Part shown: positions 13,848 to 47,189 of the stretch, piece after piece
Numbering within the stretch: the stretch's first letter is position 1
Layout of the letters: every line of letters starts with the position of its first letter
Program-made: the position numbers and the translations under genes
Notes under the pieces: generated by a model
What the model was told of the DNA's origin: nothing
The model's input: only the letters and a program-made list of their open reading frames with translations
The model's database searches: none
IMG/VR virus record: IMGVR_UViG_2728369130_000006
Location: 43,200-107,199 of that record
Source: a virus
Lineage: Duplodnaviria > Heunggongvirae > Uroviricota > Caudoviricetes
Direction: 5' to 3' (one strand)
Length of the DNA: 64,000 bases

Positions 13848-13863
13848 CAAAACTAATTAATAA
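13848..13863 (+). promoter_or_regulatory. conserved AAACTAATTAATAATG element without a -10 hexamer, 20 nt before the ATG
   Basis: acaaaactaattaataatgaatcaggagg followed by the ATG at 13883. Confidence 0.4.
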
Positions 13864-13882
13864 TGAATCAGGAGGATTTTGA

Positions 13883-15028
13883 ATGGCAGAATTGCAACAA
13901 ACTAAGAATAGCTTTAGATTTAAAGGGAAAGTGACTCGAATCGATAAGGACGGAGCTTTCAAAGAGGATGTTTCCAAAAATCAAGGCAAGTTATATAGAA
14001 GCTTACGTTTTGGAGTGAAAACAAGCCCGAATAATGAAATGATGGTTTCTATGTTTGATTTTAAACCAGACGAGGTTTTCTTATGGAATAGCGAAAAAGC
14101 AAAAAAAGCAAAAGAAGAGAATAAGTCTTATAAAGGAGAAAGGATTCCTTTTGAAGAGTGGGTAGAGAAAGAAGACGAGCTTAGGGAATCAGGATATGCA
14201 GTGTTGCAATCGAGAATTGGCCTTGAATATGATGAAGATGGTAAATTAAATAGTAAGGGTGTACCCTCTTATGTTGCCTCGAAAGAAATTTATGATCAAT
14301 TAAGTAATAATGACAGTGTAGTAGTGGAAGGCAAGATTCGATATAATACATATGAGAATCAACAAGGCAAGACGGTTGAGAGAAAAGACTTTCAAATAGA
14401 AAAAGTACATAGATTAAAAGATATTGATTTTGAAAGTGAAAAATTTGAGGAAGTTACATATTTTGAGCAAGACATGGTTTATGTTGATGCAGAATTGGAT
14501 AGGGAACAAAATAAGGTCTATATAACTGGTCGAACAATTGACTATAATAAAAATTGGCATGATTCTCAATTTGTAATCGATTATTCCGATGGTCAAGACG
14601 GAATTGATGAAGGTATGAAGAAGCTTGGAGATTCGTTTTTAAAACGTATTAAGTTTGGAGACCTTGTTTCGGTATTCGGAAACGCTTTGAATCAAATGGT
14701 CGTAGAAGAATCTGAGGATGAGGAAGAAAATCCAGATGAATTATTGAAATCTCTTGGAGGAAGGTCTAAACCTGCACATGCACAGAAATACACCATTCGA
14801 AATTACATTCAAGAGATGAGAATTGAAGGTATTGATGCATGGGAAAGAAAAATGTATAAAGAAGAGGATTTTGTAGACAATGGTTTGCTTCAAAAAGATG
14901 AAGACCTTCAAAATGAATTAGGTGGCAAATCTAAAAAAGAATCTAGCAATCCTTTTGATACTGATGACGATCCATTCGCAAATGATGGAAAGCCGATTGA
15001 CATCTCTGATGATGATTTACCTTTCTGA
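13883..15028 (+). CDS. SSB-like single-stranded DNA-binding protein with an acidic C-terminal tail
   Basis: C-terminus DISDDDLPF mimics the SSB tail DDDIPF. Position lies next to the recombinase ATPase. Confidence 0.45.
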   Translation: MAELQQTKNSFRFKGKVTRIDKDGAFKEDVSKNQGKLYRSLRFGVKTSPNNEMMVSMFDFKPDEVFLWNSEKAKKAKEENKSYKGERIPFEEWVEKEDELRESGYAVLQSRIGLEYDEDGKLNSKGVPSYVASKEIYDQLSNNDSVVVEGKIRYNTYENQQGKTVERKDFQIEKVHRLKDIDFESEKFEEVTYFEQDMVYVDAELDREQNKVYITGRTIDYNKNWHDSQFVIDYSDGQDGIDEGMKKLGDSFLKRIKFGDLVSVFGNALNQMVVEESEDEEENPDELLKSLGGRSKPAHAQKYTIRNYIQEMRIEGIDAWERKMYKEEDFVDNGLLQKDEDLQNELGGKSKKESSNPFDTDDDPFANDGKPIDISDDDLPF

Positions 15029-15053
15029 TAAAACTAATTAATAATGATAAAAT
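15025..15053 (+). promoter_or_regulatory. promoter-like copy of the conserved element (weak -35, -10 TAAAAT)
   Basis: Read directly from the sequence. Confidence 0.4.
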
Positions 15054-15148
15054 AAACATATTAAACTGATAACGTAATAAACGTAGGATGTTAAATCAAG
15101 AATGGAAGCATCCCCATTCACAATTAAATGTGAAAAAGGGGAAAATAT

Positions 15149-16217
15149 AATGTCATTTTTAAAACAACTTAAACCAAACAAACCAACAGCAAGCTTGGAA
15201 GGATATTTTATCTCAATGCTCGCAAAGTCAAAGTTTGGGAAAACGACTTTCTCAGTAGATTTAGCAAAAGAGTTCTATGGAAATTTAGATAGTACACTGC
15301 TCTTGGCTACTGAGATTGGATATAAAACAATGGATGGAGTCTTTGCTGTTCCAGTTACAGGATTTGATTACGCGGAAGAAGATGATGGTCAACAACGTGG
15401 TTTTATTGAGACGATTGATGAGCTGATTGAAAACAAATCTGATGTTCCGTTTCGATTTATCATCATTGACACTATCACAGCTTTAGAAAGATATGCGATT
15501 GCATATGTCTTAAGAAAAGCGGGTCGTGAAGATGGTAAACGATATACAGACATCTCTGATATCCCTTGGGGGAAAGGCTACAATATGGTGGCTGAAGAAA
15601 TTTACAAGCAGATTGATAGACTTAAGAAAGCTGGATTCGGTGTATTCATTATCGGTCATGAAAAAACGCGTAAGATTACAAATAAAGATGGTTTTGAATA
15701 TGATTATACGACATTCAATGTGTTGTCAAAGACCTCTGATATTATCGAGCGCGAAGCGGATATGATCATCTATGGTGATCTGCAAGTCGAAAAAAGTGAA
15801 GAAGGTAAAGCTTTTGAGACTAGAAAACTTCGCTTTCGTAGTGATGGAAATATCCTTTGTGGAACGCGATTCCGCACCTTTCCAAGTGTGATTGATAATG
15901 ACGCAAAAATTTTCGTGAAAACTTTCAAAGAAGCAATTTTGGGATTATACAATGGTGACGAAAAGGCCGTTGCAGAGGCTCAAAAAGAACAGAAAGAAGA
16001 AGCGGAAGTAAAGGCAGAAAAATCAATTGAAAAGGAAAAACGATCTGCTGAATTTTTAATTAAAGACATTGAAAAAATAGTTGGAAGTTTAGACAACGAT
16101 GTTAAGAAAGAAATTGCTGTTTATTTCAAAGAAATCCTAGGTAATGTAAACTTTAGGAAATCCGAAGACGTAGATGCTTTGGAAAAGGCTTTAAAATTTG
16201 TGAAAAGCAAACGGTAA
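15149..16217 (+). CDS. AAA_24/Sak4-like RecA-fold ATPase (phage recombination)
   Basis: P-loop AKSKFGKTT. The hydrophobic stretch FRFIIIDTIT resembles a Walker B motif. Confidence 0.5.
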
Positions 16218-24491: not shown

Positions 24492-24531
24492 CTAAGACTA
24501 AAGATGAAAACCAACGAAAGGAATTGAGTAA

Positions 24532-25014
24532 ATGAAGTTAACTGATAAATTTGTTTTCTTCTGGGGAGCGGAAGATGTTTTTTCAAACTTTCATTACTTT
24601 CCGTTTGAACATCAAGGTATTTTGTTTAAATGGTCAGAACAAGCTGTAATGTATAGAAAGGCAAAGCTTTTTGGAGCACATACAATTGCATCGAAAATCT
24701 TAAAAGCTAATTCACCAAAAGAATGTAAAGCTTTGGGAAGAAGTAGACAAATCCCATTTAATGAAGAAATCTGGTTGAAAAACAGAGAGAGAATTTATAA
24801 AGAAGTCTTAAAGGATAAGTTCTCACATCCACATGCAAAGATCGCAATCCTATCTACAGGGAATAGGATGTTGGTTGAGGCAAGCCCTTATGATAAGATT
24901 TGGGGTATTGGATTAGCGGCAAGTCATCCTGATGCCGAAAACCCTGAAAAGTGGAAAGGCTTAAATTTATTAGGTAAAGTTCTTATGGAGGTTAGGAGTG
25001 AGTTGAGGGAGTGA
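24532..25014 (+). CDS. NADAR (YbiA/DUF1768) domain protein
   Basis: FFWG...SNF..FPF...G..F.S.EQAVMYRKAKLF....A..IL.A.SP...K.LGR matches the YbiA-like NADAR fold. Confidence 0.55.
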   Translation: MKLTDKFVFFWGAEDVFSNFHYFPFEHQGILFKWSEQAVMYRKAKLFGAHTIASKILKANSPKECKALGRSRQIPFNEEIWLKNRERIYKEVLKDKFSHPHAKIAILSTGNRMLVEASPYDKIWGIGLAASHPDAENPEKWKGLNLLGKVLMEVRSELRE

Positions 25015-25311
25015 CTTCTTATACTGCTGAATATATTGAAAATAGACTCGAAATATTATTCCCAAAATACAAGATTGAGCAAGTTGGAATGCATTTAACA
25101 GAGGTTGCTCTTACAAATATTGACTCTCATATAAGACTTTCTTTGGAGTTAAATATGCAAAGAAATATGCTGAATTAAAAGAAGATAGAATTATACATTT
25201 AAATAAAGTTCTGACATTAAGAAGTGTATTGGGAGATATTTACGAAATAAAATTGGGAATAGACGAAGAATCAAAAACTGTTTATTGGAAACCTGTTTGA
25301 AAGGGGAGTAT

Positions 25312-25761
25312 ATGAGCGAAATTATTATCTATGCTGATGGCGGTTGTAGGAATAATGGTAAAGAGAATAATATTGGTGGTTGGGGAGCGGTGCTTCAATA
25401 TAACGGCCATGTAAAAGAGCTTTACGCAGGAGAAAGAAATACTACCAATAATATTCAAGAATTAAAAGGAGCTATCAATGCACTAGAAGCACTTAAAACA
25501 ACAAATATTCCTGTTCGTTTACACATGGATTCTGCTTATGTGGTAAATGGAATAAATCAATGGGTTAAAGGTTGGAAGAAAAAAGGCTGGAAGAAAGGCG
25601 ATGGAAAAAATCCTGAAAACCTTGAGCTTTGGAAACATCTTGATAATCTTGTTTCAAAACAGGAAGATATTCAAGTATTAAAAGTAAAAGGACATGCAGG
25701 TGTTGATCTAAATGAAAGAGCAGATGAGTTGGCGAACTTAGCTATGGACGAGGTGGAGTAA
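25312..25761 (+). CDS. ribonuclease HI
   Basis: IYADGGCRNNG, ELKGAINALE, HMDSAYV and the ...ADELAN catalytic motifs. Confidence 0.65.
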   Translation: MSEIIIYADGGCRNNGKENNIGGWGAVLQYNGHVKELYAGERNTTNNIQELKGAINALEALKTTNIPVRLHMDSAYVVNGINQWVKGWKKKGWKKGDGKNPENLELWKHLDNLVSKQEDIQVLKVKGHAGVDLNERADELANLAMDEVE

Positions 25762-26216
25762 TGATTAAAATTATTCAAGGCGATTTGTTAGAAGCAAAAG
25801 AAAATATTATTGCACATCAGGTAAATTGTAAAGGTGTCATGGGAAGTGGCGTAGCAAAGCAAATTAAGCAAAAATATAATAAAGCGTTTAATGATTATAA
25901 AAATTTAATTACTAGACGAGCCGTGGAAGAACTTTTAGGGAGCGTTCAATATGTGCCCATTGATGACAAGAAATACATTGCCAATTTATTTGGACAATAC
26001 AAATATGGATATGATGGAATCCAATATACAAATATAGAAGCATTATCAGATTGCTTATTTGATTTGAGAAAAGAAGCAGAAAAACATGAGCTATCGGTTG
26101 CTATGCCTTATATGATCGGTTGCGACCGTGGCGGAGCGGACTGGAGAGAAGTTGAAGGACTAATCATTGATGCATTTGAAGGATATGAAGTAACTTTATA
26201 TAAATTGAAAAGGTGA
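25761..26216 (+). CDS. macro-domain protein (ADP-ribose binding/processing)
   Basis: IIQGDLLEAKENIIAHQVNCKGVMGSGVAKQI follows the macro-domain N-terminal pattern. Confidence 0.5.
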   Translation: MIKIIQGDLLEAKENIIAHQVNCKGVMGSGVAKQIKQKYNKAFNDYKNLITRRAVEELLGSVQYVPIDDKKYIANLFGQYKYGYDGIQYTNIEALSDCLFDLRKEAEKHELSVAMPYMIGCDRGGADWREVEGLIIDAFEGYEVTLYKLKR

Positions 26217-26225
26217 AGATGATTT

Positions 26226-26897
26226 ATGGGGAAAGAAACTGTTTATCGAGGTATGAAGCCTTTTTTGCAACTTGCAAATATTAAATTAGACCTTGAAAAA
26301 GCAAAGAAAGATTTTATAAACCTTCTTCCTCCAGAATATCAGGAGGAGTTTAAAAACAAATCATATTTGGCTGGTGGAGCTATCTACAGTTTATACAATA
26401 ATCAAATACCAAAGGATTATGATTTCTTTTTAACAGATGAATCACTCGTAAAAGAATTACGGAGATTCTTTGATAATGGAACACTTAAATATAAAAATGG
26501 TGTCAAAATCGGAAAGTATAAGGGTGAGACTCTTGTATACACTGACAATGCAATATCAATTGGAATGTACCAGATAATTACTAAATGGGTGGGCAAACCA
26601 GAGGATGTAATTGGAGAATTTGACTTTAAACATAATATGTATTACTACATAAATGGAGAGATTGAGACGTTAGTTGGCTGGGAGTATTTAAATGACAATA
26701 AGCTTAAATACAATGAAAAGAGAGCTAGAGATATTTGCGGAACAATTATTAGAATAAAGAAATTTGTTGAGCGCGGATTTACCGTTACTAATCATGAAGT
26801 AGCGAAGATGCTTTTAAAATTACATGAAGTTGGCTTTAATGAAGGAGAGTTAGAAATTTTACATATAAACGATGAAAGAAACGATTTTGGCAGTTGA
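26226..26897 (+). CDS. putative Pol-beta-superfamily nucleotidyltransferase (CCA-enzyme-like head motif)
   Basis: LAGGAIYSLYNNQIPKDYDFFLT versus GGAVRD.LLG..PKDIDIAT. Confidence 0.3.
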   Translation: MGKETVYRGMKPFLQLANIKLDLEKAKKDFINLLPPEYQEEFKNKSYLAGGAIYSLYNNQIPKDYDFFLTDESLVKELRRFFDNGTLKYKNGVKIGKYKGETLVYTDNAISIGMYQIITKWVGKPEDVIGEFDFKHNMYYYINGEIETLVGWEYLNDNKLKYNEKRARDICGTIIRIKKFVERGFTVTNHEVAKMLLKLHEVGFNEGELEILHINDERNDFGS

Positions 26898-26922
26898 CAA
26901 AACTAATTAATAATGAGAAAAT
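26894..26922 (+). promoter_or_regulatory. promoter TTGACA-AAACTAATTAATAATGA-GAAAAT
   Basis: Read directly from the sequence. Confidence 0.45.
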
Positions 26923-26982
26923 AATAAATTATAATACATAATTAATTGTTAGTTCGATCTTGCTTAATAAGGAGAGGTTTTG

Positions 26983-27204
26983 ATGCATTATATATATGAA
27001 TCAAAGTGCAACAAAAAGGCAAAAGAAAGAGCTAATTTTTACTTTACAGAGGTTTATAACAATCTGTACGAAGTAACAAAGCATAAATTCGGGATCACTG
27101 GTCACAGATTAAATTCAAAAGATGTTATGCAAACCTTACAAAATGAAGACAGAGTAGTTATCGAAAGACTGGATGGATCAATTTATGCAAACCATCTTTT
27201 TTAA
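26983..27204 (+). CDS. hypothetical small protein
   Basis: RBS AAGGAGAGG. Confidence 0.4.
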   Translation: MHYIYESKCNKKAKERANFYFTEVYNNLYEVTKHKFGITGHRLNSKDVMQTLQNEDRVVIERLDGSIYANHLF

Positions 27205-27213
27205 AACATTACA

Positions 27214-27229
27214 AAACTAATTAATAATG
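27214..27229 (+). promoter_or_regulatory. conserved element without a -10 hexamer, 21 nt before the ATG
   Basis: acaaaactaattaataatgctagaggag followed by the ATG at 27250. Confidence 0.4.
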
Positions 27230-27249
27230 CTAGAGGAGATATATAAATA

Positions 27250-27486
27250 ATGGAGATTAAAATTTTAAAGTATGAAAAAAGTCATTCAGGCTACTTTTTA
27301 AAACACAAAGCACTGGTAGAAGCATCTGGTGAGATTGATGAAAATGATTTGATTTTCAATGCTAGCATTGAAGTTGGTTATCATCCTAAAGAGTATGGGC
27401 TATATGGTTTTAAAGTGAAAAAATTCTCTATCAAGGATCAGACTAGGTTTATCATTGCTTGGGAAACAGATCGGAGGAAGATTTGA
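27250..27486 (+). CDS. hypothetical small protein
   Basis: RBS AGAGGAG. Confidence 0.4.
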   Translation: MEIKILKYEKSHSGYFLKHKALVEASGEIDENDLIFNASIEVGYHPKEYGLYGFKVKKFSIKDQTRFIIAWETDRRKI

Positions 27487-32479: not shown

Positions 32480-32505
32480 AATATCATTTTTATCAAGGTG
32501 AGATT

Positions 32506-32709: not shown

Positions 32710-32785
32710 TAATCTAGCCGACATTGAAAATTACTTCATAGACATAAACATCTTAAAATATGTCATAAACGGAAGGATGAAAAGA

Positions 32786-32977: not shown

Positions 32978-33026
32978 TACATAGGGTTATACATGAATTT
33001 TTTATCATGGAAGGAGAAATATTATT

Positions 33027-33242
33027 GTGAAAGATTATAAAGATACTAAGTTACTCAGCGAAGATTGTATGGTTAATCGTGCTTTTTACGGAGTCGGAAT
33101 AACTGGAGAAAATAAAGTTCCTCAAAAAAGATTGTCCAATATTACAATAACACATTCTATTCATGGAAAAATTAAATTAGATAGAGAAGAGGCAATAAAT
33201 TTAAAATTGTTTTTAGAAAATTCTTTAGAACAAGAATTTTAA
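33027..33242 (+). CDS. hypothetical small protein
   Basis: GTG start after GGAAGGAGA. Confidence 0.3.
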   Translation: MKDYKDTKLLSEDCMVNRAFYGVGITGENKVPQKRLSNITITHSIHGKIKLDREEAINLKLFLENSLEQEF

Positions 33243-33647
33243 AATCTTACTTTTATTAAGGGGTGATAAACATGGATGGTAGAGAATTTTTGATTATTGG
33301 CAGACTTCAAGCATGGTTGGAAGATAAAATCAAAGAATCTAATGATGACAAGGAGCAATATGTTTACGAACAAGTATTATGGAAAGTTGATGAACTTAGA
33401 AACTGAATAAAAATCTATCCTATAAAGGAGTTTTGAGATGAAACTACAAGATGTTTTAGAAAAATTTAAACAGCAAGGTAATTATGATGTATCACTTTAT
33501 TATGGAGAAAGTGTTGGTTGTGATGATTTAAGTATTCTGCCTCAGCATGAAGAGTATTCAGAAAATGGTGTTTATGTTTGGGTACAGAAAGCGCAATGAA
33601 GTCTTATTTAGAAGGAATCGGAAAAGAAATTTATAAAGGAGAATTTA

Positions 33648-34001
33648 ATGAGAATGCGAATTTCCAAGAGTAATAAGGATAAATTGATGAGTGAGCTGAA
33701 TACATTTATCGATGATCTTATAGATCAGAAAGATCACCTGTCTGAACAGTTAAAGAATTTTAATGCAGAAGAAAAAGTGGCGAAAGCCTTAAAAGAAATC
33801 GAGGAAATTAAAAGAGCAAGTCTCTACGTTATGAATGATCAAGAAGATAAGGATGCAAAAGAATTTATAGAGAAACATTGGAATAGTTGCAAAGGAAATG
33901 TTCAATATATTCTTGAAGGAACTGGCCTTGGTACAGTCATCAGTATTAAATGTAAAGAATGTAATGAAGTAAAAAATATAACAGATGATTCAAATTGGTA
34001 A
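33648..34001 (+). CDS. hypothetical protein with a C-terminal CxxC pair
   Basis: RBS AAGGAGAA. CKGN...CKECNE. Confidence 0.4.
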   Translation: MRMRISKSNKDKLMSELNTFIDDLIDQKDHLSEQLKNFNAEEKVAKALKEIEEIKRASLYVMNDQEDKDAKEFIEKHWNSCKGNVQYILEGTGLGTVISIKCKECNEVKNITDDSNW

Positions 34002-34015
34002 AAGGATGGATACAT

Positions 34016-34276
34016 ATGAGTGAACTATTCCATTATGGAATGTACACCTTTTGGTATAACAATCTTGAAGAGTTTTATGCTTGGTTCAATCAGGAGATGA
34101 AGAGGTTAAGACCAAAAGGAACATGTGCACAAGATATGGCTACGACAACAGGACATACAGCTTTCTGCAAGACATACCCTACTTTTGATGATGCATTTAG
34201 AGCTTATATAAGAAGTGTTGAAGAGAATAGGCATAAAGAGATGTTGACTGATATACAAGGAAAAGAATTGTTGTGA
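34016..34276 (+). CDS. hypothetical protein
   Basis: RBS AAAGGATGG before the ATG at 34016. Confidence 0.35.
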   Translation: MSELFHYGMYTFWYNNLEEFYAWFNQEMKRLRPKGTCAQDMATTTGHTAFCKTYPTFDDAFRAYIRSVEENRHKEMLTDIQGKELL

Positions 34277-34301
34277 TTTCATTTTAATAAGAGGTGGCAA
34301 G

Positions 34302-34484
34302 ATGGAAGGATTGCTGGATTTCTTTAAAGAAAATTGCGTAGCATTACAAATAACAATAGACATAAATCGTAAACCAACGGTACACGCCGTTCCAAAAGGA
34401 CGTAGTTTCATGGATATGGAATCTACAGATGGTGAAACAGTTGTAGAAGCTTTGAAAAATATGAAGAATAGGTTGTTTGGATAA
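34302..34484 (+). CDS. hypothetical small protein
   Basis: RBS AGAGGTGG. Confidence 0.35.
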   Translation: MEGLLDFFKENCVALQITIDINRKPTVHAVPKGRSFMDMESTDGETVVEALKNMKNRLFG

Positions 34485-34511
34485 AACATCAATAGATAAT
34501 AAGGAGATAAC

Positions 34512-34739
34512 ATGATTAAAAAATATGTAGTTGCTTATTACAGTAATATCTATACGAATGTATTTTTAAACGGCGGATGGGAAAATCAATACATAGGGCA
34601 AGGCATTGTACATGAATCTAAAAAATTCAACCATCCTCCTAAAACATTGAGTTCGTGTTTAAATCTAGTTAGTCATTATGCTCCAAAAGACAAGGGATAT
34701 GACTATGCAAAAATTGAAGAGAGATATTATAAAAGTTAA
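34512..34739 (+). CDS. hypothetical small protein
   Basis: RBS AAGGAGA. Confidence 0.35.
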   Translation: MIKKYVVAYYSNIYTNVFLNGGWENQYIGQGIVHESKKFNHPPKTLSSCLNLVSHYAPKDKGYDYAKIEERYYKS

Positions 34740-34758
34740 ATTGGTTTAGGAGAATTAT

Positions 34759-35100
34759 ATGGATGAACTTGTTCAATATTATATTGTAAACAAAGAACTT
34801 AATATGTCAAAAGGAAAAATGTCTGCACAAGTTGCACATGGCGCAACTATTTCCGCTGTGATGCTGAGTGAGCAAGAGACATTTCAGAAATGGTATGAGA
34901 AGGATCAAAAAAAGATCATACTTCAAGGGAAAGAAAAAGACTTACATAAAATTTTATCGAATGTCACTTACAGCTTTATGGTTACTGATAATGGCTTAAC
35001 AGAGATACCAAAAGGATCAAAGACTGTTGTTGTCTTACCGCCTATGAAAAAATCAGAGGCGCAAAGATATGTGAAGAGATTACAGTTATTCAAAGGTTAG
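34759..35100 (+). CDS. PTH2-family peptidyl-tRNA hydrolase
   Basis: YIVNKELNMSKGKMSAQVAHGA, KIILQGKEKDL, DNGLTEIPKGSKTVVVLPP match PTH2 (VVRTDL.MGKGKIAAQ.SHA ... DAG.T.I..GS.TVL.IGP). Confidence 0.55.
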   Translation: MDELVQYYIVNKELNMSKGKMSAQVAHGATISAVMLSEQETFQKWYEKDQKKIILQGKEKDLHKILSNVTYSFMVTDNGLTEIPKGSKTVVVLPPMKKSEAQRYVKRLQLFKG

Positions 35101-35111
35101 GAGAGAAATAG

Positions 35112-35447
35112 ATGTCGAAATTTGAATTTGACGTGGAAAGAAAAGGTTTAATTAGCGATGGATATCATACTTTTGATGAATTATATTATCATCGAATGAT
35201 CTTATTTTCTGTCATTTGTAATACATACAAAGATAAAGCATGGAAGTCTTGGAAACATGATGATGGAACAATGTTTGATGACTACTTCATTGTTGGGATT
35301 GAGACTACTCACGGCCACTATACTTATCACTATCACAAAGATTATTGGGAATTGTTTGATGTTAAAAAATTAGAATTTGCTCCAAAATGGGATGGGCATA
35401 AATCAGAAGATATTGATAGATTGTTCAGCTTAATTGGCAATAGCTAA
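35112..35447 (+). CDS. hypothetical protein
   Basis: RBS GGAGAGAAA. Confidence 0.4.
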   Translation: MSKFEFDVERKGLISDGYHTFDELYYHRMILFSVICNTYKDKAWKSWKHDDGTMFDDYFIVGIETTHGHYTYHYHKDYWELFDVKKLEFAPKWDGHKSEDIDRLFSLIGNS

Positions 35448-35580
35448 AAGGGGAATTATAAATGTATTTTGAATTTGGTGAACTTCTTATCATGCTCATT
35501 CTGCAAGGATTTACATGTTATTGTATTGGATATAGGGTTGGAAAGGAGTAAATTCAGTATTTTTATAAAGGAGTTATATT

Positions 35581-35865
35581 ATGTTTTCATTGGAGAATAT
35601 TAAGAGTCGAATAGCTAAAGATGATGGTGTAGGAAACTACGCCAACGTCTCTTGTGAGGAGATAGATTGGATTGTAGAGCTGGCATCGAAAGCCAAGGAG
35701 TATGAAGAGATTATATCTTTTATTGCGAATATTGATGTTATCTTCATGAATCCAGATGGCACAGAAAGAGAATGGGATGATAAAGAAGCTTTGAAGAAAA
35801 TTGACGAATTAGCTACACCTGTGTGGGAAGAAATATGTAGGAAAAGTAGGAGAAGTGATGAATGA
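35581..35865 (+). CDS. hypothetical acidic protein
   Basis: RBS AAGGAG. Confidence 0.4.
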   Translation: MFSLENIKSRIAKDDGVGNYANVSCEEIDWIVELASKAKEYEEIISFIANIDVIFMNPDGTEREWDDKEALKKIDELATPVWEEICRKSRRSDE

Positions 35866-36089
35866 AATTTCCATTTTATACAGGAGTCGATAAAGATTGA
35901 ATATTGAAGGATTTATTGAATTGGCAGAAAAAGAAATAAAACAACTAAAAGAGGATATGCACTATTCTAGGCACGATGTTTCTATAAGGATTCTTTTACA
36001 AGCAATAGAAGATAGACAAAAGACAATTGAAGAAGTTAAAGAGAAATATCTTAATAGATAAAATGCGAGTTTTATAAAGGAGGATAACA

Positions 36090-36365
36090 ATGAAATTTGC
36101 AAAAGTAAGTGGAGACAATGTAGTGATTAAGTTGCCAATTAATTTATTACAGGTCGCATTCGACAACAACCCAAACAATTATGATGAAGAGATTAAGGTT
36201 AAATATAAAAGGAGATTTGCACAGGCATTTGCCAATAAGGTTAATAGCACATCTGCAAACAGCGAGAGTGGTTTGACAGTATTCCAGGAGTGGATAGATG
36301 AAATTTTCGAGGAAATGATTGAAGATGAAGAATCATATATTAAATATCCCAAAGAAGAAGAATAA
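36090..36365 (+). CDS. hypothetical acidic protein
   Basis: Preceded by the repeat AAATGCGAGTTTTATAAAGGAGG. Confidence 0.4.
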   Translation: MKFAKVSGDNVVIKLPINLLQVAFDNNPNNYDEEIKVKYKRRFAQAFANKVNSTSANSESGLTVFQEWIDEIFEEMIEDEESYIKYPKEEE

Positions 36366-36399
36366 TATATAAATGCGAGTTTTATAAAGAGGTGTGAAT

Positions 36400-36774
36400 A
36401 TGAAAACCAAGCTATTTAAAATCCGCAACAAAGAGACAGGAGAGTTTTCTAAAGGTGGCACGTGGAGATATGGTATTTGGACTAAAGGTGGGAAAACATG
36501 GACTAATATAGGTCATGTTAAAAGTCACCTAAATCAGTTTCTAATAGATTATAGAAATAACCATGAAAGATATCCATATCATAATGCTGAAATAGTCGAG
36601 GTGGAAGTTGATTATGATGATTGTTTTGCTTACGATGTTAATATTCTTGTAGAAGAAATAGAAGATAAACAAAAGGCAAAAGAAAAGAAAGCAGAAGAAC
36701 TATATAAAAAATGGGAAGAAGAACGTGAGCGAAAACTGTTAGAAGAACTAAAAAAGAAATATCCTAATGGATGA
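36400..36774 (+). CDS. hypothetical protein
   Basis: Preceded by a second copy of the AAATGCGAGTTTTATAAAGAGG junction. Confidence 0.4.
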   Translation: MKTKLFKIRNKETGEFSKGGTWRYGIWTKGGKTWTNIGHVKSHLNQFLIDYRNNHERYPYHNAEIVEVEVDYDDCFAYDVNILVEEIEDKQKAKEKKAEELYKKWEEERERKLLEELKKKYPNG

Positions 36775-37003
36775 AATTTTCATCTTGAAAGAGGTGTATT
36801 AGTGTGAAGTTGACAGATGAAGAATTAAAAAAATTGCCTAAAAATTGCTTGAATTGGAATGAAAAAGATGGATTAATTATTAATAAAGATATTCTAAAGT
36901 CGATATGCAATGAGTTGTTAGAATACAGAAAAAAGAATAATGGATAAACCTCTTCTAGTTTATACATATGAAAAATCAAACTGATTAAAGGAGAATGATT
37001 GAT

Positions 37004-37213
37004 ATGGAACTCAATAAAACAACCCTCAATACAAAGAATCTGCGTATTAATAGCGATTTATTTCTAATTAACAATAACGATGGTAGCTACTACGTAGGGA
37101 AAAGCAGATTCTCTCAGTCGGGAGTAACTATTGATGAAAATGAATACAGATACCTTCTTTCACTTAGTAAATATCCAATTGTTTTAAATAAAGTATGTTT
37201 ATCACAATTATAA
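37004..37213 (+). CDS. hypothetical small protein
   Basis: RBS AAGGAGA. Confidence 0.35.
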   Translation: MELNKTTLNTKNLRINSDLFLINNNDGSYYVGKSRFSQSGVTIDENEYRYLLSLSKYPIVLNKVCLSQL

Positions 37214-37458
37214 AAAGTTTTTTTGTAAGGGAGAGTGAAAATATGAATAAGATACATAAGATATTAAGCTATGAGTGTAAGGATTTATCTATACTTACTC
37301 ATCAATTGAATAAAGATATTGATAACTATGACAATTGGAAAACCGATTGATTGATGCAAATAGAGAGTCTGGATGCTACTTTTACATTTTGACAGTTTAT
37401 AAATAATGAAACAAATAACGAAGTGATTAAACTGGCGAAAATAGGAGGGAAAACAGCA

Positions 37459-37689
37459 ATGAATGAATTTCTTTATACATTAGCTGAAATAAAATATAGG
37501 ATGTATCATGAGCTTTTTATATTTAAGCCTACTGCATATACAGACGATGAATGTAATCGCAGAATAAAGTACCTTGCAAAATATGAGCAAACCTTGGCAA
37601 TTATTAATTTACTACCCATTGAGGAAGAAAGAAGGTTGCGAGCAATTGAGAATGAGTATTTTTCAGATGCACCATATGTCAGCAAATAG
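37459..37689 (+). CDS. hypothetical small protein
   Basis: RBS AGGAGGGAAA before the ATG at 37459. Confidence 0.35.
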   Translation: MNEFLYTLAEIKYRMYHELFIFKPTAYTDDECNRRIKYLAKYEQTLAIINLLPIEEERRLRAIENEYFSDAPYVSK

Positions 37690-37724
37690 ATAAAATTCAA
37701 CTTTTATGAAGGAGGGTCTCCAGT

Positions 37725-38045
37725 ATGGAAAGTTATGTGCACATTAAATGCCCTAAATGTACCTATAGTTTTAATGAGTATATCGACAATCACTATTCTC
37801 ATGTAAGTGATTTTGAGGTATGTGAACATTGCGGTTCAGTGAACCAGATTACAAAATTCAATGAAATCAAAGATACAGATGTAATTCTCGATATCATTGG
37901 TGAAGAATTAGAAAATGCGAATTATCATAGCTTTACCTCACTTCCGATGTGTATTTTTGATGTAGTTAAAGATTTTGCTAAACCAGAAGATCATGTGAAT
38001 CTTGCAAGGAGAATTGCTCTAGCTATTCATGAAGGGGTGAGATAA
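37725..38045 (+). CDS. zinc-ribbon protein, hypothetical
   Basis: CPKC...CEHCG. RBS GAAGGAGGG. Confidence 0.4.
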   Translation: MESYVHIKCPKCTYSFNEYIDNHYSHVSDFEVCEHCGSVNQITKFNEIKDTDVILDIIGEELENANYHSFTSLPMCIFDVVKDFAKPEDHVNLARRIALAIHEGVR

Positions 38046-38181
38046 AGCATGAAGGTTGTAATTGGTTCTCTGATTATCTTGTTTATTTTTGCTTTTGGAG
38101 TATGGTTAATGCTAAGCCCAACTTTCGGGAAAGTAGGCAAGCAAGCAACTAAAATTAAAAAAATTATGGAGGAAGATAAGA

Positions 38182-38982
38182 ATGAATAAAAAGATTATTG
38201 GTGGAATTATTGTTGGTGGAGCATTGGTATTAGGAGGGATTCTGGGATCAATGTTTATTGAGAAGATCCCAAATGGATATGTAGGAGTTGTTTACTCACC
38301 AAATGGTGGAGTGAAAGATACGACATTAGATCAAGGATGGCATGTGGTTGGTCTGTTTGACAAGGTAACAGAATATCCTGTTCGTATGCAAACTGTGAAC
38401 AATGAAGATATTAAAGTAGCTACTTCTGATGGGAAAAACATTTCAATGGATATCGCCTATAACTATGTCGTTCAGCCAGATAAAGTAGTTGATGTATTCA
38501 ATAAGTTCGGTGCAGTTGATGTTGAACAAATTGAAAATACATACTTGAAAACGCGTCTATGGGATGCGGCAAGACAATCAATTTCTAAATATTCAGTAAT
38601 TGATACATATGGTCAAAAATCTTCCGAAGCGGCCGCAGAAGTTCAAAAGGCTTTTGCAGAAGACATGAAGAAATATGGATTCATTATTGATGATTTAACT
38701 CTTGGTGTTCCAAAACCAGATAAAGCTACACAAGAAGCAATTGACGCGCGTGTGAAATCATCTCAAGAGCTTGAGCGTTCTCAAACAGAAATCAAAATTG
38801 CAGAAGCAGAAGCTAAGAAGAAAAAGATTGAAGCGCAAGGTATTGCAGACTATAACGAAACCATTAGAAAATCGATGTCAGATGAAATGATCAAATATCA
38901 ATGGATTCAAAAATGGGACGGTAAGACACCTAAAGCAACTGGCTCAAATTCAATGATTCAACTGCCGTTAGAGGATAAGTAA
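38182..38982 (+). CDS. SPFH/band-7 (prohibitin/HflK-like) membrane protein
   Basis: N-terminal transmembrane helix, then GYVGVVYS....TL.QGWHVV..FDKV...P...Q.......V.T.DG, then an A/E/K coiled coil. Confidence 0.55.
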   Translation: MNKKIIGGIIVGGALVLGGILGSMFIEKIPNGYVGVVYSPNGGVKDTTLDQGWHVVGLFDKVTEYPVRMQTVNNEDIKVATSDGKNISMDIAYNYVVQPDKVVDVFNKFGAVDVEQIENTYLKTRLWDAARQSISKYSVIDTYGQKSSEAAAEVQKAFAEDMKKYGFIIDDLTLGVPKPDKATQEAIDARVKSSQELERSQTEIKIAEAEAKKKKIEAQGIADYNETIRKSMSDEMIKYQWIQKWDGKTPKATGSNSMIQLPLEDK

Positions 38983-38983
38983 T

Positions 38984-39014
38984 AAAGTCAAGGGAGCTAC
39001 TCCCTGGCTTTATT
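38984..39014 (+). terminator. putative terminator hairpin
   Basis: aagtcaagggag-cta-ctccctggctt followed by tatt. Confidence 0.35.
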
Positions 39015-39052
39015 ATAAGATTAAAAATTCAATAATAAGGGAGAGATAAAAT

Positions 39053-39247
39053 ATGAAAAGATATGAAGTTGAATTAGAAATTGTTCAAAAATTCACTACT
39101 ACAGTAGTTGTTCAGGGTGACTTTAAAGATAGTCTCGATCCAAGAATCGATAAACTTGCTGAGGAAAAGGCAGATTTAATGAATCATGATGATTGGAACT
39201 ATGAAGAGACTGAATTTGAAATTTTAAATGTATTCGAAGAAAAATAA
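39053..39247 (+). CDS. hypothetical small acidic protein
   Basis: RBS AGGGAGAG. Confidence 0.35.
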   Translation: MKRYEVELEIVQKFTTTVVVQGDFKDSLDPRIDKLAEEKADLMNHDDWNYEETEFEILNVFEEK

Positions 39248-39278
39248 AAGGAAGAGTTAAAATGCAGGTGAAGTATGT

Positions 39279-39638
39279 ATGATAAAGGTTTCGGTATATA
39301 CAGCAAATACAGATATAGACCATAATCATGGAACATTTACGAAAGGTACGAAGTATTTTGGAAGACATTCATTAAGCGGTGATATGTTTCTTATGATGAG
39401 TAATGAAGGATATTGGATTCCTTTTGTTGTAAGGTATTTTGCTAAGGGCGGTCTAAATTCTTTTTTGAAAAACTTTAAGAAAGAAAAAGAATGTTTATAC
39501 ATACGAAATAAAAAGGATATTTATAAAATTGGATTAACTCATGAATGGGAAAGCTTAAACGAATTTACAAATGTGTATTCTCGATGTGAGGGGTGTTATT
39601 ACTCTAAGGCATTTTGCAACTGTGAAGAAGAAGACTAA
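39279..39638 (+). CDS. hypothetical Cys-rich protein
   Basis: C-terminal CEGCYYSKAFCNCEE. Confidence 0.35.
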   Translation: MIKVSVYTANTDIDHNHGTFTKGTKYFGRHSLSGDMFLMMSNEGYWIPFVVRYFAKGGLNSFLKNFKKEKECLYIRNKKDIYKIGLTHEWESLNEFTNVYSRCEGCYYSKAFCNCEEED

Positions 39639-39708
39639 TTTGGCAAGGAAAAAGATATTATATCCAATTCATTAAAGATGATTTAGGTTTAAAAAAGGAG
39701 AGGAATAA

Positions 39709-40290
39709 ATGAGAGTAGATATTATGGTAGACATTGAATCACTTGGTAAAAAGATCGATTCAACAATCATTCAAATTGCCGCAATATCTTTCGATATTAA
39801 CACAGGTAAATACATATCAAGTTTTAATCAGGTTGTTGATTTGGGAAGAAATTCTGAACAACCAAATCTGGACGCGGACACAATTAAATGGTGGATTGAA
39901 ACAGATGTCAAACTCTTTGCAGAGCTTATTAGCAATGGAACTGTGTCTTCATCTGAGTTGTTTAATAATTTTTATAAATGGATTGTAGATCAGGGAGAAA
40001 AGAAAAGCATTTATCTATGGGGAAATGGGATTCTTTTTGATAATAAGATGATACAGTATCAACTTGAAAATCATCACAATCTTCCATACCCTATATTTTA
40101 TAAAAATGATAGAGACGTTAGAACAATCCTAGAATTGGCAAGTAAAAAGAGCGGGGTTAACGAAAGAGAGATAAAAGAAAGAGTAAAACATTTTATGATT
40201 GATGAAAATTTAGTTGAGCATAATGCATTGGATGATGTTAAATATCAAATCAGATTAGTCACGGAATGTTATAGAACTTTAATTTCTTAA
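39709..40290 (+). CDS. DEDDh-family 3'-5' exonuclease (DnaQ/oligoribonuclease-like)
   Basis: VDIESLG (Exo I) and VEHNALDDV (Exo III, H-x4-D). Confidence 0.5.
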   Translation: MRVDIMVDIESLGKKIDSTIIQIAAISFDINTGKYISSFNQVVDLGRNSEQPNLDADTIKWWIETDVKLFAELISNGTVSSSELFNNFYKWIVDQGEKKSIYLWGNGILFDNKMIQYQLENHHNLPYPIFYKNDRDVRTILELASKKSGVNEREIKERVKHFMIDENLVEHNALDDVKYQIRLVTECYRTLIS

Positions 40291-40478: not shown

Positions 40479-41201
40479 ATGACTACAGATAGAGAAATTG
40501 TCTTAAAAGCGTTGGTGGGGAGTCATAATTATAATTTAGCAACAGAAGAGTCTGATAAGGATTATAAAGTATTTGTCGCTCCAACTTTTGAAGACTTATA
40601 TATGGGAAAAGAATATTCAAAATCAGTAATTACTGATTCGGAAGACAATGATTTTCATGATATCAGAAAGCTGTCAAAGTTGCTTTTTAAATCAAATATC
40701 AACTTCCTTGAGGTATTGGCCTCGACAGAAATCGAAGTAGCGAACAACCCTGAAATTGAAGAAATCTATTCAATGAGGGAGGACATTTTTCGAATGAATC
40801 TGCCGTATTTATATAATGCTTGCGGCGGAATGCATAAGAACAAAATGAGTCTTTTACATAAAGGAACAGAAGGAACTCAACATTTAGTTGATAAGTTTGG
40901 ATATGACACCAAACAAGCTCAGCACGCTTATAGATGCTTAAAGGTAATTGTAGATTACGCAGAGAATAAATTTGAAGACTTTGAAGCGGTTATTAAATAC
41001 TCTGGAGAAGATAAAGAATTTATGATGGATATTAGGAATGGAGTTTTTGAAAGAGAGGTTTTTGAAAACTTTATTAAACATTATCATGATTCTATGTTTT
41101 CTCATCTCAAAGAGGTGTATCACTCACATGAACCCAACTTAGAATTAAAGTCAAAAATTGATAAGTTAATCATGCAGTTAGTAAAAAGAAAACTAAAATA
41201 A
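40479..41201 (+). CDS. Pol-beta-superfamily nucleotidyltransferase (pfam10127/RlaP-like)
   Basis: LVGSHNYNLATEESDKDYKVFV fits the hG[GS]x9-13Dh[DE]h motif. Confidence 0.45.
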   Translation: MTTDREIVLKALVGSHNYNLATEESDKDYKVFVAPTFEDLYMGKEYSKSVITDSEDNDFHDIRKLSKLLFKSNINFLEVLASTEIEVANNPEIEEIYSMREDIFRMNLPYLYNACGGMHKNKMSLLHKGTEGTQHLVDKFGYDTKQAQHAYRCLKVIVDYAENKFEDFEAVIKYSGEDKEFMMDIRNGVFEREVFENFIKHYHDSMFSHLKEVYHSHEPNLELKSKIDKLIMQLVKRKLK

Positions 41202-44666: not shown

Positions 44667-46838
44667 ATGACTAACATGATTGAAGAAAACATTGTTGAAA
44701 CGCTTACCAAAAATTATATGCCTTATACAGCGCATGTTATTATGGAGAGAGCTTTACCTGAAATCGATGGGTTAAAACCATCTCAAAGAAGGATATTATA
44801 CACCATGTACAAGATGGGTTTACAAAAGGGAGGCCGTAAAAAATCTCAAGGTGTAGTAGGACAAACTATGTTTTTGCATCCTCATGGTGATGCGGCTATC
44901 TATGAGACACTCGTAAGGATGTCTAAAGATGCAGAAGCACTTTTGATTCCATTTATCGATTCGAAAGGTAACTTCGGGAAGCAGTATTCCAGAGATATGA
45001 AGTACGCATCAGCGCGATATACTGAGGTAAGACTTACTGAAATTGCTAAAGAACTGTTTAAAAACATTGATAAAAATACCGTTGAGATGATCGATAACTA
45101 TGATGGAACACTGAAAGAGCCAAGATACCTTCCTGTAACTTTCCCAGCAATATTAACGAATCCGCAGAATGGGATTGCGAATGGCATGGCATCAAGTATT
45201 GCACCATTCAATCTAAATGAAGTAATTGACTACACTATTCAATACATCAAAAATCCAAAACATACAAAGGTTTCTGACTATATTAAAGCTCCAGACTTTC
45301 CTACAGGCGGAAATATTGTGTATAACCAAAGTGAACTTGAAAGAATTTATGATACTGGCAAAGGATCAGTGGTTATTCGCTCTTCATACAGGTTTGAGAA
45401 AAACTCAATTATTTTTGAGGACATTCCTTATACAACATCCTTTGAAGCGGTCATAGAGAAGATTTCCCAGCTTGTTAAAGAAGGGAAACTTAAAGAGGTT
45501 GTAGATGTAGATGATATTTACGGAATCAATTCAAAGGGTATTGAAGTTACAGTTAAAAACAATATTGACAAAAAGCTACTCGTAGAAAAGTTATTCAAAT
45601 TAACTCCGCTACAATCTTCTTTCGGATGCAACTTCAATATCATTGTAAATGGTAGACCAAAGGTTTTGGGAGTAAAGCAAATTATTCACGAATGGTTAGC
45701 TTTTAGAGCAAATACAATCAAACGTGGATTTAGATTTGAAAAGCAGAAGAAGGAATCTAAAATGCATTTGTTGTCTGCATTAAAACAGGTTCTTTTAGAT
45801 ATTGATAAAGCGATCAAGATCATTAGAGAAACCAAGACAAATAATGAAGTTGTCGAAAGACTTATGACTGTGTTTTCGATTGATAAAGAACAAGCAGAAT
45901 TTGTTGCGGAGATTAAATTAAGACATCTCAATAAAGAATATCTAATTAATCGTATTAAAGATATTGAAAACCTAAAGTGTGAAATTGAGAACTTAGACGA
46001 CCTTTTAAACAATCGCAAAAGGTTGGCTCAGTATATTATCGATGAATTGGCTAATGTTAAAAAACTATACGGGAAGCAAAGAAAGTCAAACGTTATCCAA
46101 CTAAGTGATATCCCGAAAATAGAAGCGGATAAAATTGAAGTTGATGATTACAATGTAAAAGTCTTTATAACTAAAGATGGTTATCTGAAAAAAGTTCCTC
46201 TCACATCTCTAAGGGGAAATTACTCGATTAAAGTTAAAGACGGGGATGAAGTTATTAAAGAAGTGGAAACCACTAATAACTCAGAAGTTTTAGTATTTAC
46301 GGATCAGCACCGAGTGTACAAGCACAAAATTTATGAAATTGAAGACCACAAACCATCTAGCTTAGGAGAGTATTTACCGTCATTATTAGAATTAAAAGAA
46401 GAAAACGTTCTTTTTGTAACAGTGACTAATGATTATGATGGGTATCTAATTGTTGGGTTTGAGGACGGAAAGGTTGCAAAAATTGATCTTTCTGCATACC
46501 AAACTAAACAAAATAGAAAAATGCTTACTAAAGCTTATGCAGATAAAACAGCCATTTTCTTTGAGCACATTAGAGAAGATATTGATATTTTGGTGGTTTC
46601 TTCAATTGGAAAGGCTTTAGTATTTAATACATCAATGATTAATTCAAAAACCAGCAAGACTACAATAGGTGTTCAAGTGTTAAAATCAAAGAATGACAGT
46701 ATTGCCGAGGCGTATTATTTACTAAAAGACAAGTTTGAAGAGGCAGAATATTACCGAACTGCAAATGCCGGAGTTGGAAAGTATCTTCGTAAGGAAGACT
46801 TTTCAGATATTTTATTAACGCTTGACAAAACTAATTAA
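44667..46838 (+). CDS. type II DNA topoisomerase, DNA breakage-reunion subunit (GyrA/ParC/T4 gp52-like)
   Basis: YMPYTAHVIMERALPEIDGLKPSQRRILY and active-site region KYASARYTEVRL. Confidence 0.6.
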   Translation: MTNMIEENIVETLTKNYMPYTAHVIMERALPEIDGLKPSQRRILYTMYKMGLQKGGRKKSQGVVGQTMFLHPHGDAAIYETLVRMSKDAEALLIPFIDSKGNFGKQYSRDMKYASARYTEVRLTEIAKELFKNIDKNTVEMIDNYDGTLKEPRYLPVTFPAILTNPQNGIANGMASSIAPFNLNEVIDYTIQYIKNPKHTKVSDYIKAPDFPTGGNIVYNQSELERIYDTGKGSVVIRSSYRFEKNSIIFEDIPYTTSFEAVIEKISQLVKEGKLKEVVDVDDIYGINSKGIEVTVKNNIDKKLLVEKLFKLTPLQSSFGCNFNIIVNGRPKVLGVKQIIHEWLAFRANTIKRGFRFEKQKKESKMHLLSALKQVLLDIDKAIKIIRETKTNNEVVERLMTVFSIDKEQAEFVAEIKLRHLNKEYLINRIKDIENLKCEIENLDDLLNNRKRLAQYIIDELANVKKLYGKQRKSNVIQLSDIPKIEADKIEVDDYNVKVFITKDGYLKKVPLTSLRGNYSIKVKDGDEVIKEVETTNNSEVLVFTDQHRVYKHKIYEIEDHKPSSLGEYLPSLLELKEENVLFVTVTNDYDGYLIVGFEDGKVAKIDLSAYQTKQNRKMLTKAYADKTAIFFEHIREDIDILVVSSIGKALVFNTSMINSKTSKTTIGVQVLKSKNDSIAEAYYLLKDKFEEAEYYRTANAGVGKYLRKEDFSDILLTLDKTN

Positions 46839-46850
46839 TAATGATATTAT
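46822..46850 (+). promoter_or_regulatory. promoter TTGACA-AAACTAATTAATAATGA-TATTAT, embedded in the last codons of the topoisomerase A gene
   Basis: acg ctt gac aaa act aat taa gives ...TLDKTN*. Confidence 0.5.
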
Positions 46851-46920
46851 AATAAGTGTAACGTGTTGAATAGGAGGTCGTCTAAGCCAATGAAGTTTAA
46901 ATGATTTTAAAAAAACAACA

Positions 46921-46936
46921 AAACTAATTAATAATG
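46921..46936 (+). promoter_or_regulatory. conserved element without a -10 hexamer, 20 nt before the nrdH start
   Basis: acaaaactaattaataatgacaaaggag followed by the TTG at 46956. Confidence 0.4.
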
Positions 46937-46955
46937 ACAAAGGAGTTTGATTTAA

Positions 46956-47189
46956 TTGAAAAATGTAATGGTTTATACAAAAAACGGATGTCCACAATGT
47001 GAAATGACAAAAAGATTTTTAACAGGAGAAGACATTGAATTTACATCTATCAATGTAGAAGAAGATGAAAAAGCAATGGATTATGTTAAACATACTTTAG
47101 GCTTGACAGCTATGCCTGTTGTGGTTGTAGAGGGAGAAGAACCATTCACAGGTTTTAGACCAGATAAATTAGAAGAACTTAAAAAATAA
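46956..47189 (+). CDS. nrdH: NrdH glutaredoxin-like redoxin
   Basis: VYTKNGCPQCEMTKRFL (CxxC), about 77 aa, immediately upstream of nrdI and nrdE. Confidence 0.6.
   Translation: MKNVMVYTKNGCPQCEMTKRFLTGEDIEFTSINVEEDEKAMDYVKHTLGLTAMPVVVVEGEEPFTGFRPDKLEELKK

Follow-up and report, generated by a model that had tools for sequence, protein, structure and literature searches.

We analysed a 64,000-nt stretch of viral DNA (IMG/VR record IMGVR_UViG_2728369130_000006, positions 43,200 to 107,199; "the window" hereafter), which carries a dispersed 17-nt element, AAAACTAATTAATAATG. The element forms the spacer of strong sigma-A promoters, and four further copies without promoter hexamers lie immediately upstream of Shine-Dalgarno (SD) sequences. 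On balance, we favour the view that these four copies are operator-only DNA sites, at which a bound repressor resembling MrpR of phage SPbeta would block transcription into the downstream genes. The feature is most likely a further example of the known MrpR/SPBRE control in an uncultivated Tsamsa-like phage, and not a new mechanism. A sequence-only reading of the same DNA had noticed three of the four copies and offered three mechanisms for them, namely an RNase processing site, a translational operator, or a promoter for an alternative holoenzyme. None of these is the best supported, and a repressor operator had not been among them.

Copies of the element without promoter hexamers

The 17-mer was found in 10 exact copies in the window, compared with 0.00 in shuffled sequence. 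With up to three mismatches allowed there were 21 copies (2.5 expected), 20 of them on the plus strand, and the 11-nt 3' core, AATTAATAATG, was present 16 times (0.37 expected), in every case on the plus strand. The exact 17-mers are without exception intergenic, and a single core-only copy (11874-11884) falls within the MrpR-like open reading frame (ORF). Including the preceding bases, the repeat unit reads A(C/T)-AAAACTAATTAATAATG and spans 17-19 bp. The 17-mer is asymmetric overall and contains the short palindromes TAATTA and ATTAAT. In the viral contigs and bacterial genomes scanned, the repeated 17-mer was confined to the same lineage: its multi-copy carriers came from IMG/VR samples 3300019135 and 3300019132 and from one contig of a Metabacillus metagenome-assembled genome (MAG). 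A viral-contig scan for the core plus a -10 hexamer gave single chance matches only. Gene conversion is unlikely to be the sole cause of the identity among copies, since their flanks are unrelated. Reading TAATTAATAATG as an upstream ORF or a stop-codon trap was rejected as well, because just two frames are closed and the internal ATG has no SD.

In the common layout, the element fills a sigma-A promoter of the form TTGAC/A-AAACTAATTAATAATG-N-TATAAT, in which the 17-mer is the spacer and its final TG the extended -10. It serves as the spacer in 11 of the 16 strong TTGACA-17-TGnTATAAT promoters of the window, and the core is exact in eight of them.

Four copies depart from this layout. They are called operator-only here, meaning copies that have neither the TTG of the -35 nor a -10 hexamer, and their distances to genes were counted from the element's final G to the start codon's first base. 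Copy 1 (13849-13865, plus strand, 17/17) is preceded by AC and followed by aatcaGGAGG, and lies 18 nt before the ATG (13883) of a YorF-like gene for a protein resembling single-stranded DNA-binding protein (SSB). Copy 2 (27213-27229, plus strand, 17/17) is followed by ctaGAGGAG and, at 21 nt, by the ATG at 27250; behind it lies a cluster of ∼50 small ORFs that spans 13 kb. Copy 3 (46920-46936, plus strand, 17/17) is followed by acaAAGGAG and, at 20 nt, by the TTG (46956) of nrdH, behind which come nrdI, nrdE and nrdF. These three are the copies noticed before, and all of them are real; a fourth of the same kind had been overlooked. Copy 4 (59183-59199, plus strand) is followed by aataatGAGGTG and, at 18 nt, by the GTG (59217) of an ATP-dependent DNA ligase gene, whose 41-nt intergenic gap consists almost entirely of element and SD. 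The first pair of positions given earlier (13848-13863) was off by 2 relative to the frame of the other two sites.

The hexamers at these sites are poor, in agreement with the earlier observation that TATAAT and TTGACA are absent and that ACA comes before the element. In the -10 register the four copies have ATCAGG, TAGAGG, CAAAGG and ATAATG, with one to three matches out of six and T6 in none. The -35 hexamers of copies 1, 2 and 3 are AGTACA, ATTACA and ACAACA (three to four matches out of six), in which ACA is retained and TTG is gone. Because the AC before the 17-mer is retained in the operator-only copies despite the loss of TTG, the conserved block is not defined by the -35. The ribosome-binding site had been described as directly behind the element; an SD is indeed found 3-6 nt further on at copies 1, 2 and 3, and it stands 7-10 nt before the start in all four downstream genes.

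A canonical or extended -10 sigma-A promoter at the four sites was rejected on these hexamer scores (1-3/6, without T6). Were sigma-A polymerase to start in the canonical register, the transcript would begin 4-7 nt before the start codon, 3' of the SD. A promoter for leaderless mRNA was likewise rejected, since each of the four genes has an SD and two of them start with TTG and GTG. Taken together, the poor hexamers, the start 3' of the SD and the TTG and GTG starts indicate that the copies are not sigma-A, extended -10 or leaderless promoters. The hexamer scores and the 10 exact copies against 0.00 in shuffles also bear out the claim that the copies are neither ordinary promoters nor chance matches.

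A fixed distance of 20-21 nt to the start codon had been proposed and was not upheld. Measured alike, the distance is 18, 21 and 20 nt at copies 1, 2 and 3 and 18 nt at copy 4. In this phage and a 96% identical relative, taken together, copies whose -10 is poor or absent lie 18, 18, 20, 21, 26, 29, 29, 32, 38, 56 and 65 nt from the start. The four window copies without a -10 are all at most 21 nt from the start codon, and the window copies with at least four of six matches in the -10 and an identified downstream start are all at least 29 nt from it. The spacing from element to start is a lower bound, not a constant. The values of 18-21 nt arise because the element abuts the SD, which needs its usual 7-10 nt to the start codon. 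The broader proposal of an action on mRNA or DNA just 5' of translation initiation regions can be accepted as to general placement.

Copies 1, 3 and 2 lie 66, 93 and 314 nt 3' of a promoter-embedded copy, respectively, and a close relative has two more such tandems, 55 and 56 nt apart. The RNA at the four sites is predicted to be unpaired and folds no better than shuffled sequence (z -1.2 to +1.2). An Rfam scan of the whole window at gathering thresholds gave no match to a cis-regulatory RNA.

The window is ∼96% identical to an IMG/VR contig (3300019135_000009) and is also matched by a contig in a Metabacillus MAG. In the ∼96% relatives, orthologous copies of the element have 3 changes in 272 nt, all at position 1 or 6. 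The 11-nt core has no change in 176 nt, with about 8 expected (P ∼2e-4), and 4.8% of the ±60-nt flanks of the orthologous copies has changed. Judged from these alignments, purifying selection acts on the element itself. The four operator-only copies together have 1 change in 68 nt vs. 28 in 425 nt of their flanks. Copy 1 is identical (17/17) in relatives L033/L097. Copy 2 is identical in relative L261, while 9 of the 65 flanking nucleotides differ. Copy 3 has a change at position 1 only in relative L032 vs. 10 changes in the ±60-nt flanks. Copy 4 is identical in relative L073, with 3 changes in the next 20 nt and with ATG instead of GTG as the ligase start.

The MrpR-like protein and comparable repeats in other phages

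Two genes 5' of the SSB-like gene, the window encodes a 349-amino-acid protein of the MrpR/YopR family (11851-12900, plus strand), the usual annotation of which is 'integrase'. The protein matched YopR/MrpR (PDB 8bj6/8a0a) over the full length (residues 13-335, E=4e-18) and the core-binding and catalytic-like Pfam families MrpR_N_CB and MrpR_C_cat at 75.6 and 48 bits, respectively (cutoff 27 each). It gave no match to Phage_integrase (PF00589), which SPbeta YopP does match. A Phe is aligned to Y304 of MrpR in the window protein and its Tsamsa-like orthologs, in an alignment at 27% identity, and this residue is a difference from SPbeta. Throughout the Tsamsa-like phages the MrpR-like gene is conserved as a neighbour of the SSB gene. 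The MrpR-homolog matches included no Lactococcus record, and in Lactococcus phage 949 an SSB-like gene is present and the leader element absent. We infer from these comparisons that the 11851-12900 product is a candidate binder of the element.

MrpR is the master repressor of the Bacillus prophage SPbeta, with a recombinase fold that retains just 3 of 7 recombinase catalytic residues, and it is a monomer in solution (Kohm et al. 2023, PMC10516654). MrpR is described as binding the 15-bp SPBRE at ten promoter regions, by chromatin affinity purification sequencing (ChAP-seq), electrophoretic mobility shift assay and isothermal titration calorimetry, and as repressing the SPBRE promoters (PMC10516654). 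A monomer fits an asymmetric site. In the SPbeta sequence, the promoters of yorE, yorZ, yorM and aimR are of the TAGACA type and have SPBRE (AAAAATATGTATATA) in the spacer/-10. The copies at yopM and yopV lack a -10; GGAG(G) follows them directly, and the ATG is 20 and 26 nt downstream, respectively. MrpR ChAP-seq peaks have been published for all six sites (PMC10516654). As the yopM and yopV sites are included, the SD-abutting class is bound on DNA in vivo by the repressor in SPbeta. No discussion of an operator architecture abutting the SD was found in the passages of the MrpR paper that were consulted (PMC10516654).

The window and SPbeta are alike in that a short, asymmetric and co-oriented repeat occurs intergenically at early and replication genes, and in that both have promoter-spacer copies plus hexamer-less copies abutting an SD. 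The replication module of the window is also syntenic with yorE-yorL (yorE/F/G-like genes, helicase, primase and RecJ). The sequences differ: the window element has 10 of 17 identities with SPBRE in spacer register, which is approximately the expectation for A/T-rich spacers, and by this comparison it is an analog and not SPBRE itself. It ends at the TG (-14), whereas SPBRE continues into the -10. The window has at least 16 copies in 64 kb vs. the ten reported MrpR ChAP-seq peaks in the 134-kb SPbeta genome, and its operator-only copies are further from transcription starts than those of SPbeta (∼+6 to +30). No arbitrium genes were seen in the 64-kb window.

The window phage groups with the large Tsamsa-like Bacillus siphoviruses (PBC2, FADO, vB_BcoS-136, Tsamsa and others), and its SSB-like protein is 41-60% identical to theirs. 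In every Tsamsa-like relative examined, the leader of the SSB-like gene is composed of a sigma-A promoter, a 5' hairpin, a near-invariant single-stranded tract, ttCACCATAAAAGCAAAAAATAATTACATAAT, and an SD. In the window the 5' untranslated region (UTR) hairpin (13820-13840, plus strand; GAGGGAGA/UCUCCCUU) lies between the promoter at 13778 and copy 1. Compensatory changes were found in five of its eight pairs across the phage family, and a covarying hairpin 5' of the element shows that transcription of the SSB gene begins at the upstream sigma-A promoter. Copy 1 is the positional ortholog of the tract, and AAATAAT is invariant in 12/12 sequences. Compared in register with the family promoter consensus, the tract matches at 19 of 29 positions, lacks TTG, and has TT for TG and CATAAT for TATAAT. 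The gap between tract and SD is 4-13 nt in the family leader and 14 nt at position 12360 of L073.

An intrinsic terminator between promoter 13778 and the SSB gene was rejected, there being a 4-U tail only; in relatives the hairpin is followed by CCUUCACC. In this hairpin and in those of the orthologous leaders, the purines of the 5' arm resemble an SD and the pyrimidines of the 3' arm an anti-SD, and in the window the loop and 3' arm (GAUCACCUCUCCCUUU) resemble the 3' end of 16S rRNA. From its sequence, the hairpin could be a 5' stabiliser or an SD-sequestering switch.

PBC2 also encodes an MrpR homolog, and its promoters share another spacer, AGCGCAAAAGATAATGA. Two -35-less copies of this repeat of its own abut SDs, at 34754 and 43121. 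The PBC2 leaders at these two positions, before PBC2_079 (SSB-like) and PBC2_088, are near-identical over ∼40 nt including the SD (AAAAGCAAAAAATAATTAnnTAATTGGAGGAAT), with a hairpin 5' of each. The gap at the PBC2 ligase gene is 17 nt, and the element was gained there in the window lineage. Brevibacillus phage Sundance (104000-122000) has its own ∼18-nt repeat, AAGCCAAATAAAGTAYT, before at least six replication-module genes; one copy abuts an SD, and others are followed by a hairpin. The MrpR-like 'integrase' of Sundance is 27% identical. The SD-abutting copies follow each phage's own promoter spacer, which points to a lineage-specific trans-acting reader.

Proposed repression and alternative explanations

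The presence of an MrpR homolog in the window, together with the SPbeta precedent, favours a repressor-operator reading. The element would be this phage's counterpart of SPBRE, a short asymmetric DNA operator for the MrpR-like protein of tyrosine-recombinase fold encoded at 11851-12900. At promoter-spacer copies the bound protein would exclude RNA polymerase. At operator-only copies it would form a roadblock in the path of polymerases from upstream, either alone or together with a promoter-embedded copy 66-314 bp away. The genes gated in this way would be the SSB-like gene, the 13-kb small-gene cluster, nrdHIEF and the DNA ligase gene. The repressor operon, with a promoter (11737) that lacks the element, would otherwise read into the SSB gene, and the two tandem operators with a weak hairpin between them would be met on the way. 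Copy 2 would gate the 13-kb cluster, which has no strong promoter, and copy 3 would separate the gyrase operon from nrdHIEF. Both the binding of the element by the MrpR-like protein and the block to elongation are steps that we infer. The C1 repressor of phage P1 resembles this arrangement in its many dispersed, asymmetric ∼17-bp operators, mostly overlapping promoters, and in being monomeric; it differs in belonging to an unrelated protein family and host.

Several points weigh against repression by a roadblock at these sites. Binding of such a protein to its element is known from SPbeta only (PMC10516654), and with 10/17 identities the window element is not significantly similar to SPBRE in sequence. 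A roadblock needs neither co-orientation nor contact with the SD, but all copies are co-oriented and four abut an SD. The operator-only copies lie at approximately +37, +61 and +285 from the nearest promoter, and copy 4 is far from any strong one, whereas the SD-abutting copies of SPbeta are within ∼30 nt of the transcription start, where occlusion would be classical. The longer distances call for a different and less certain mode of action, either roadblock or looping. For the four operator-only copies taken alone, the signal of selection is no more than suggestive (Poisson P ∼0.06). The binder could also be the XRE-family helix-turn-helix (HTH) protein encoded at 4729-5091 or a host factor.

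The SD contact raises the question of a signal in RNA, which might be a translational operator for a phage RNA- or ssDNA-binding protein after the fashion of gp32 or RegA (perhaps the SSB-like protein), a ribosome standby site or enhancer, or an endoribonuclease site. We consider this unlikely. The four copies all abut an SD and are co-oriented with the gene, in a tract that is predicted to be unpaired and without significant structure. The tract before the SSB gene is part of a family-conserved 5' UTR, behind the covarying hairpin, with AAUAAU invariant in 12/12 sequences. One target is an SSB gene, and T4 gene 32 is the classic case of autogenous translational control of an SSB gene. The T4 gene 32 and RegA operators are similar in having an A/U-rich unstructured leader by the SD of replication genes, including SSB, and a structured 5' element; they differ in that they are not promoter-spacer copies, and no counterpart of the RNA-binding regulator was identified in the window. 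The unstructured A/U-rich tract next to the SD is compatible with the RNase site or translational operator proposed earlier, but the identical 17-mer in the untranscribed spacers of 11 promoters speaks against both. An RNA-level signal leaves those spacer copies unexplained, and also the retention of the upstream AC. General A/U-richness would not demand 17/17 identity, the distance from element to SD varies in relatives (4-13 nt, and 14 nt at the L073 site), and there was no Rfam match. Moreover, the equivalent SD-abutting copies of SPbeta are reported to be bound on DNA by MrpR in vivo (PMC10516654).

One sequence might also be used in two media, as a DNA operator in the promoter spacers and as an RNA signal for translation or processing at the SD-abutting copies, with the same or a second phage protein, e.g., the SSB-like one, as its reader. 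We regard this as quite unlikely. Such a dual role could explain the co-orientation and the SD contact in four lineages (this phage, PBC2, SPbeta and Sundance).

It is very unlikely that the element is a stand-alone promoter. In this case a phage sigma-like factor or appropriator would direct a start just 3' of the element, perhaps with AATAAT as the -10; leaders would begin at the SD, and early and middle promoters would stand in tandem as in T4. In line with this, ∼18 nt looks like the lower limit of the distance to the start codon (range 18-65), the family leader has an invariant AATAAT 4-13 nt ahead of the SD, the genes behind the sites belong to replication and nucleotide metabolism, and tandems with an early promoter are common. 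T4 middle promoters likewise have a phage box in place of the -35, and early and middle promoters are found in tandem before T4 replication genes. However, the T4 promoters differ, in that the middle ones retain a sigma-70 -10 and the late ones have TATAAATA; the four window copies have no -10 in register, and no MotA, AsiA or gp55-like proteins were found here. Pfam and PHROG scans of the window ORFs detected no sigma factor or RNA polymerase, none is listed in the PBC2 annotation (1-150 kb), and nothing useful was found in the literature on Tsamsa promoters and sigma factors. The AATAAT motif comes without TG and without a consistent -35, and an SD at the extreme 5' end would be unusual. The canonical register starts 3' of the SD, and the TTG and GTG starts exclude a leaderless mRNA. 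Finally, the covarying upstream hairpin puts the SSB transcript start at the sigma-A promoter. The alternative-holoenzyme promoter of the sequence-only reading is disfavoured on the same grounds: neither the window nor the annotated relative PBC2 offers a sigma factor or RNA polymerase as a candidate, and the SSB transcript starts further upstream.

We give little weight to the same operator being read by another binder, i.e., the XRE-family HTH protein (4729-5091, plus strand; HTH_3, E=1.9e-13), a small phage protein, or a host nucleoid or regulatory protein. The window does encode the HTH_3 protein, most of its small ORFs are without annotation, and the element contains the short palindromes mentioned above. 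XRE dimers usually need a clear dyad, but the 17-mer is asymmetric; the lineage-specificity of the element tracks the presence of an MrpR homolog, and none of the bacterial genomes scanned has the 17-mer as a repeat.

That the four copies are functionless relics, promoter copies decayed for example by a deletion fusing the spacer to the SD and seemingly conserved only because they are young, is highly doubtful: they do share exactly the promoter segment -33 to -14, and selection on the four alone is not statistically firm, but they persist in ∼96% relatives whose flanks changed, the same SSB-gene architecture is found across a family with 41-60% protein identity and recurs in SPbeta, PBC2 and Sundance, and the element was gained at the ligase gene in an otherwise minimal gap (17 nt in PBC2).

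If the repressor-operator reading is true, MrpR/SPBRE-type control reaches beyond SPbeta, the sole phage of its description so far, and extends to large Tsamsa-like Bacillus siphoviruses (PBC2, FADO, Tsamsa and others), in which 'integrase' is the routine annotation of the gene. Such a phage would have most of its early promoters in a single regulon, with a recombinase-fold repressor reading a dispersed short repeat. Operator-only copies against the ribosome-binding site recur in four lineages, including the experimentally bound sites of SPbeta, and such copies bear on whether MrpR-type proteins repress by roadblock besides promoter occlusion. In practical terms, a corrected annotation and a candidate operator/repressor pair for Bacillus genetic tools would be gained.

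Other copies and features of the window

Three of the promoter-embedded copies, all on the plus strand, are the upstream partners of operator-only copies. The one at 13783-13799 (two mismatches; TTGACA-17-TATAAT, promoter 13778) lies 66 nt 5' of copy 1. The one at 26899-26915 (17/17; TTGACA, TG, GAAAAT) lies 314 nt 5' of copy 2 and is also 17/17 in L261. The one at 46827-46843 (17/17; promoter 46822) lies 93 nt 5' of copy 3. Another plus-strand copy, at 786-802, has TTGACA and TATAAT, and further promoter-embedded copies are located at 6097, 11488, 17597, 20944, 22981, 40323 and 52981. An intermediate copy (15030-15046, plus strand), without a -35 and with the extended -10 TGaTAAAAT, was found before a Sak4-like (YorG-like) gene. 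The further copies of this intermediate class are at 51782 (dUTPase-like gene) and 21072.

The MrpR-like gene carries degenerate copies of its own. A near-copy with two mismatches and an intact core (11868-11884, plus strand; core 11/11) falls in codons 6-11 and is kept in relative L033. The sole minus-strand match (11720-11736, three mismatches) abuts the -35 of the gene's promoter at 11737, whose spacer is without the element. The near-copy and the inverted degenerate copy suggest, from their positions, that the MrpR-like gene may be autoregulated.

The cluster behind copy 2 (27250-40290) consists of ∼50 consecutive small ORFs of 40-130 amino acids, almost none of which has a family match; these 13 kb contain neither a strong sigma-A promoter nor the element. 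Relative L261 (DASQMK010000067.1) is a 3.7-kb contig, 91-96% identical to window positions 24506-28880, that was binned in a Metabacillus sp. MAG. The binning may point, weakly, to the host, or it may be an artefact.

The nrdH leader contains a four-codon mini-ORF, ATG AAG TTT AAA TGA (46890-46904), with a strong SD, AGGAGG, at 46872-46877. The mini-ORF is located between promoter 46822 and copy 3 and is kept in relative L032. Downstream, nrdE is split into an N-terminal part (47547-48707) and a C-terminal barrel part (49559-50797), and the ORF between the two (48971-49468) has an I-TevI-like DNA-binding domain. By its layout, the interruption resembles the intron of SPbeta bnrdE in carrying what seems to be a homing endonuclease; no group I intron was found in the split nrdE by Rfam at the gathering threshold. 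RNA-repair-type genes are located in 6468-7193, 40479-41201 and 55943-58140, and encode a Thg1-like tRNA-His guanylyltransferase, RlaP, a T4 Rnl1-like RNA ligase and a kinase/HD phosphatase. Proteins with PTH2 and NADAR domains are also encoded in the window.

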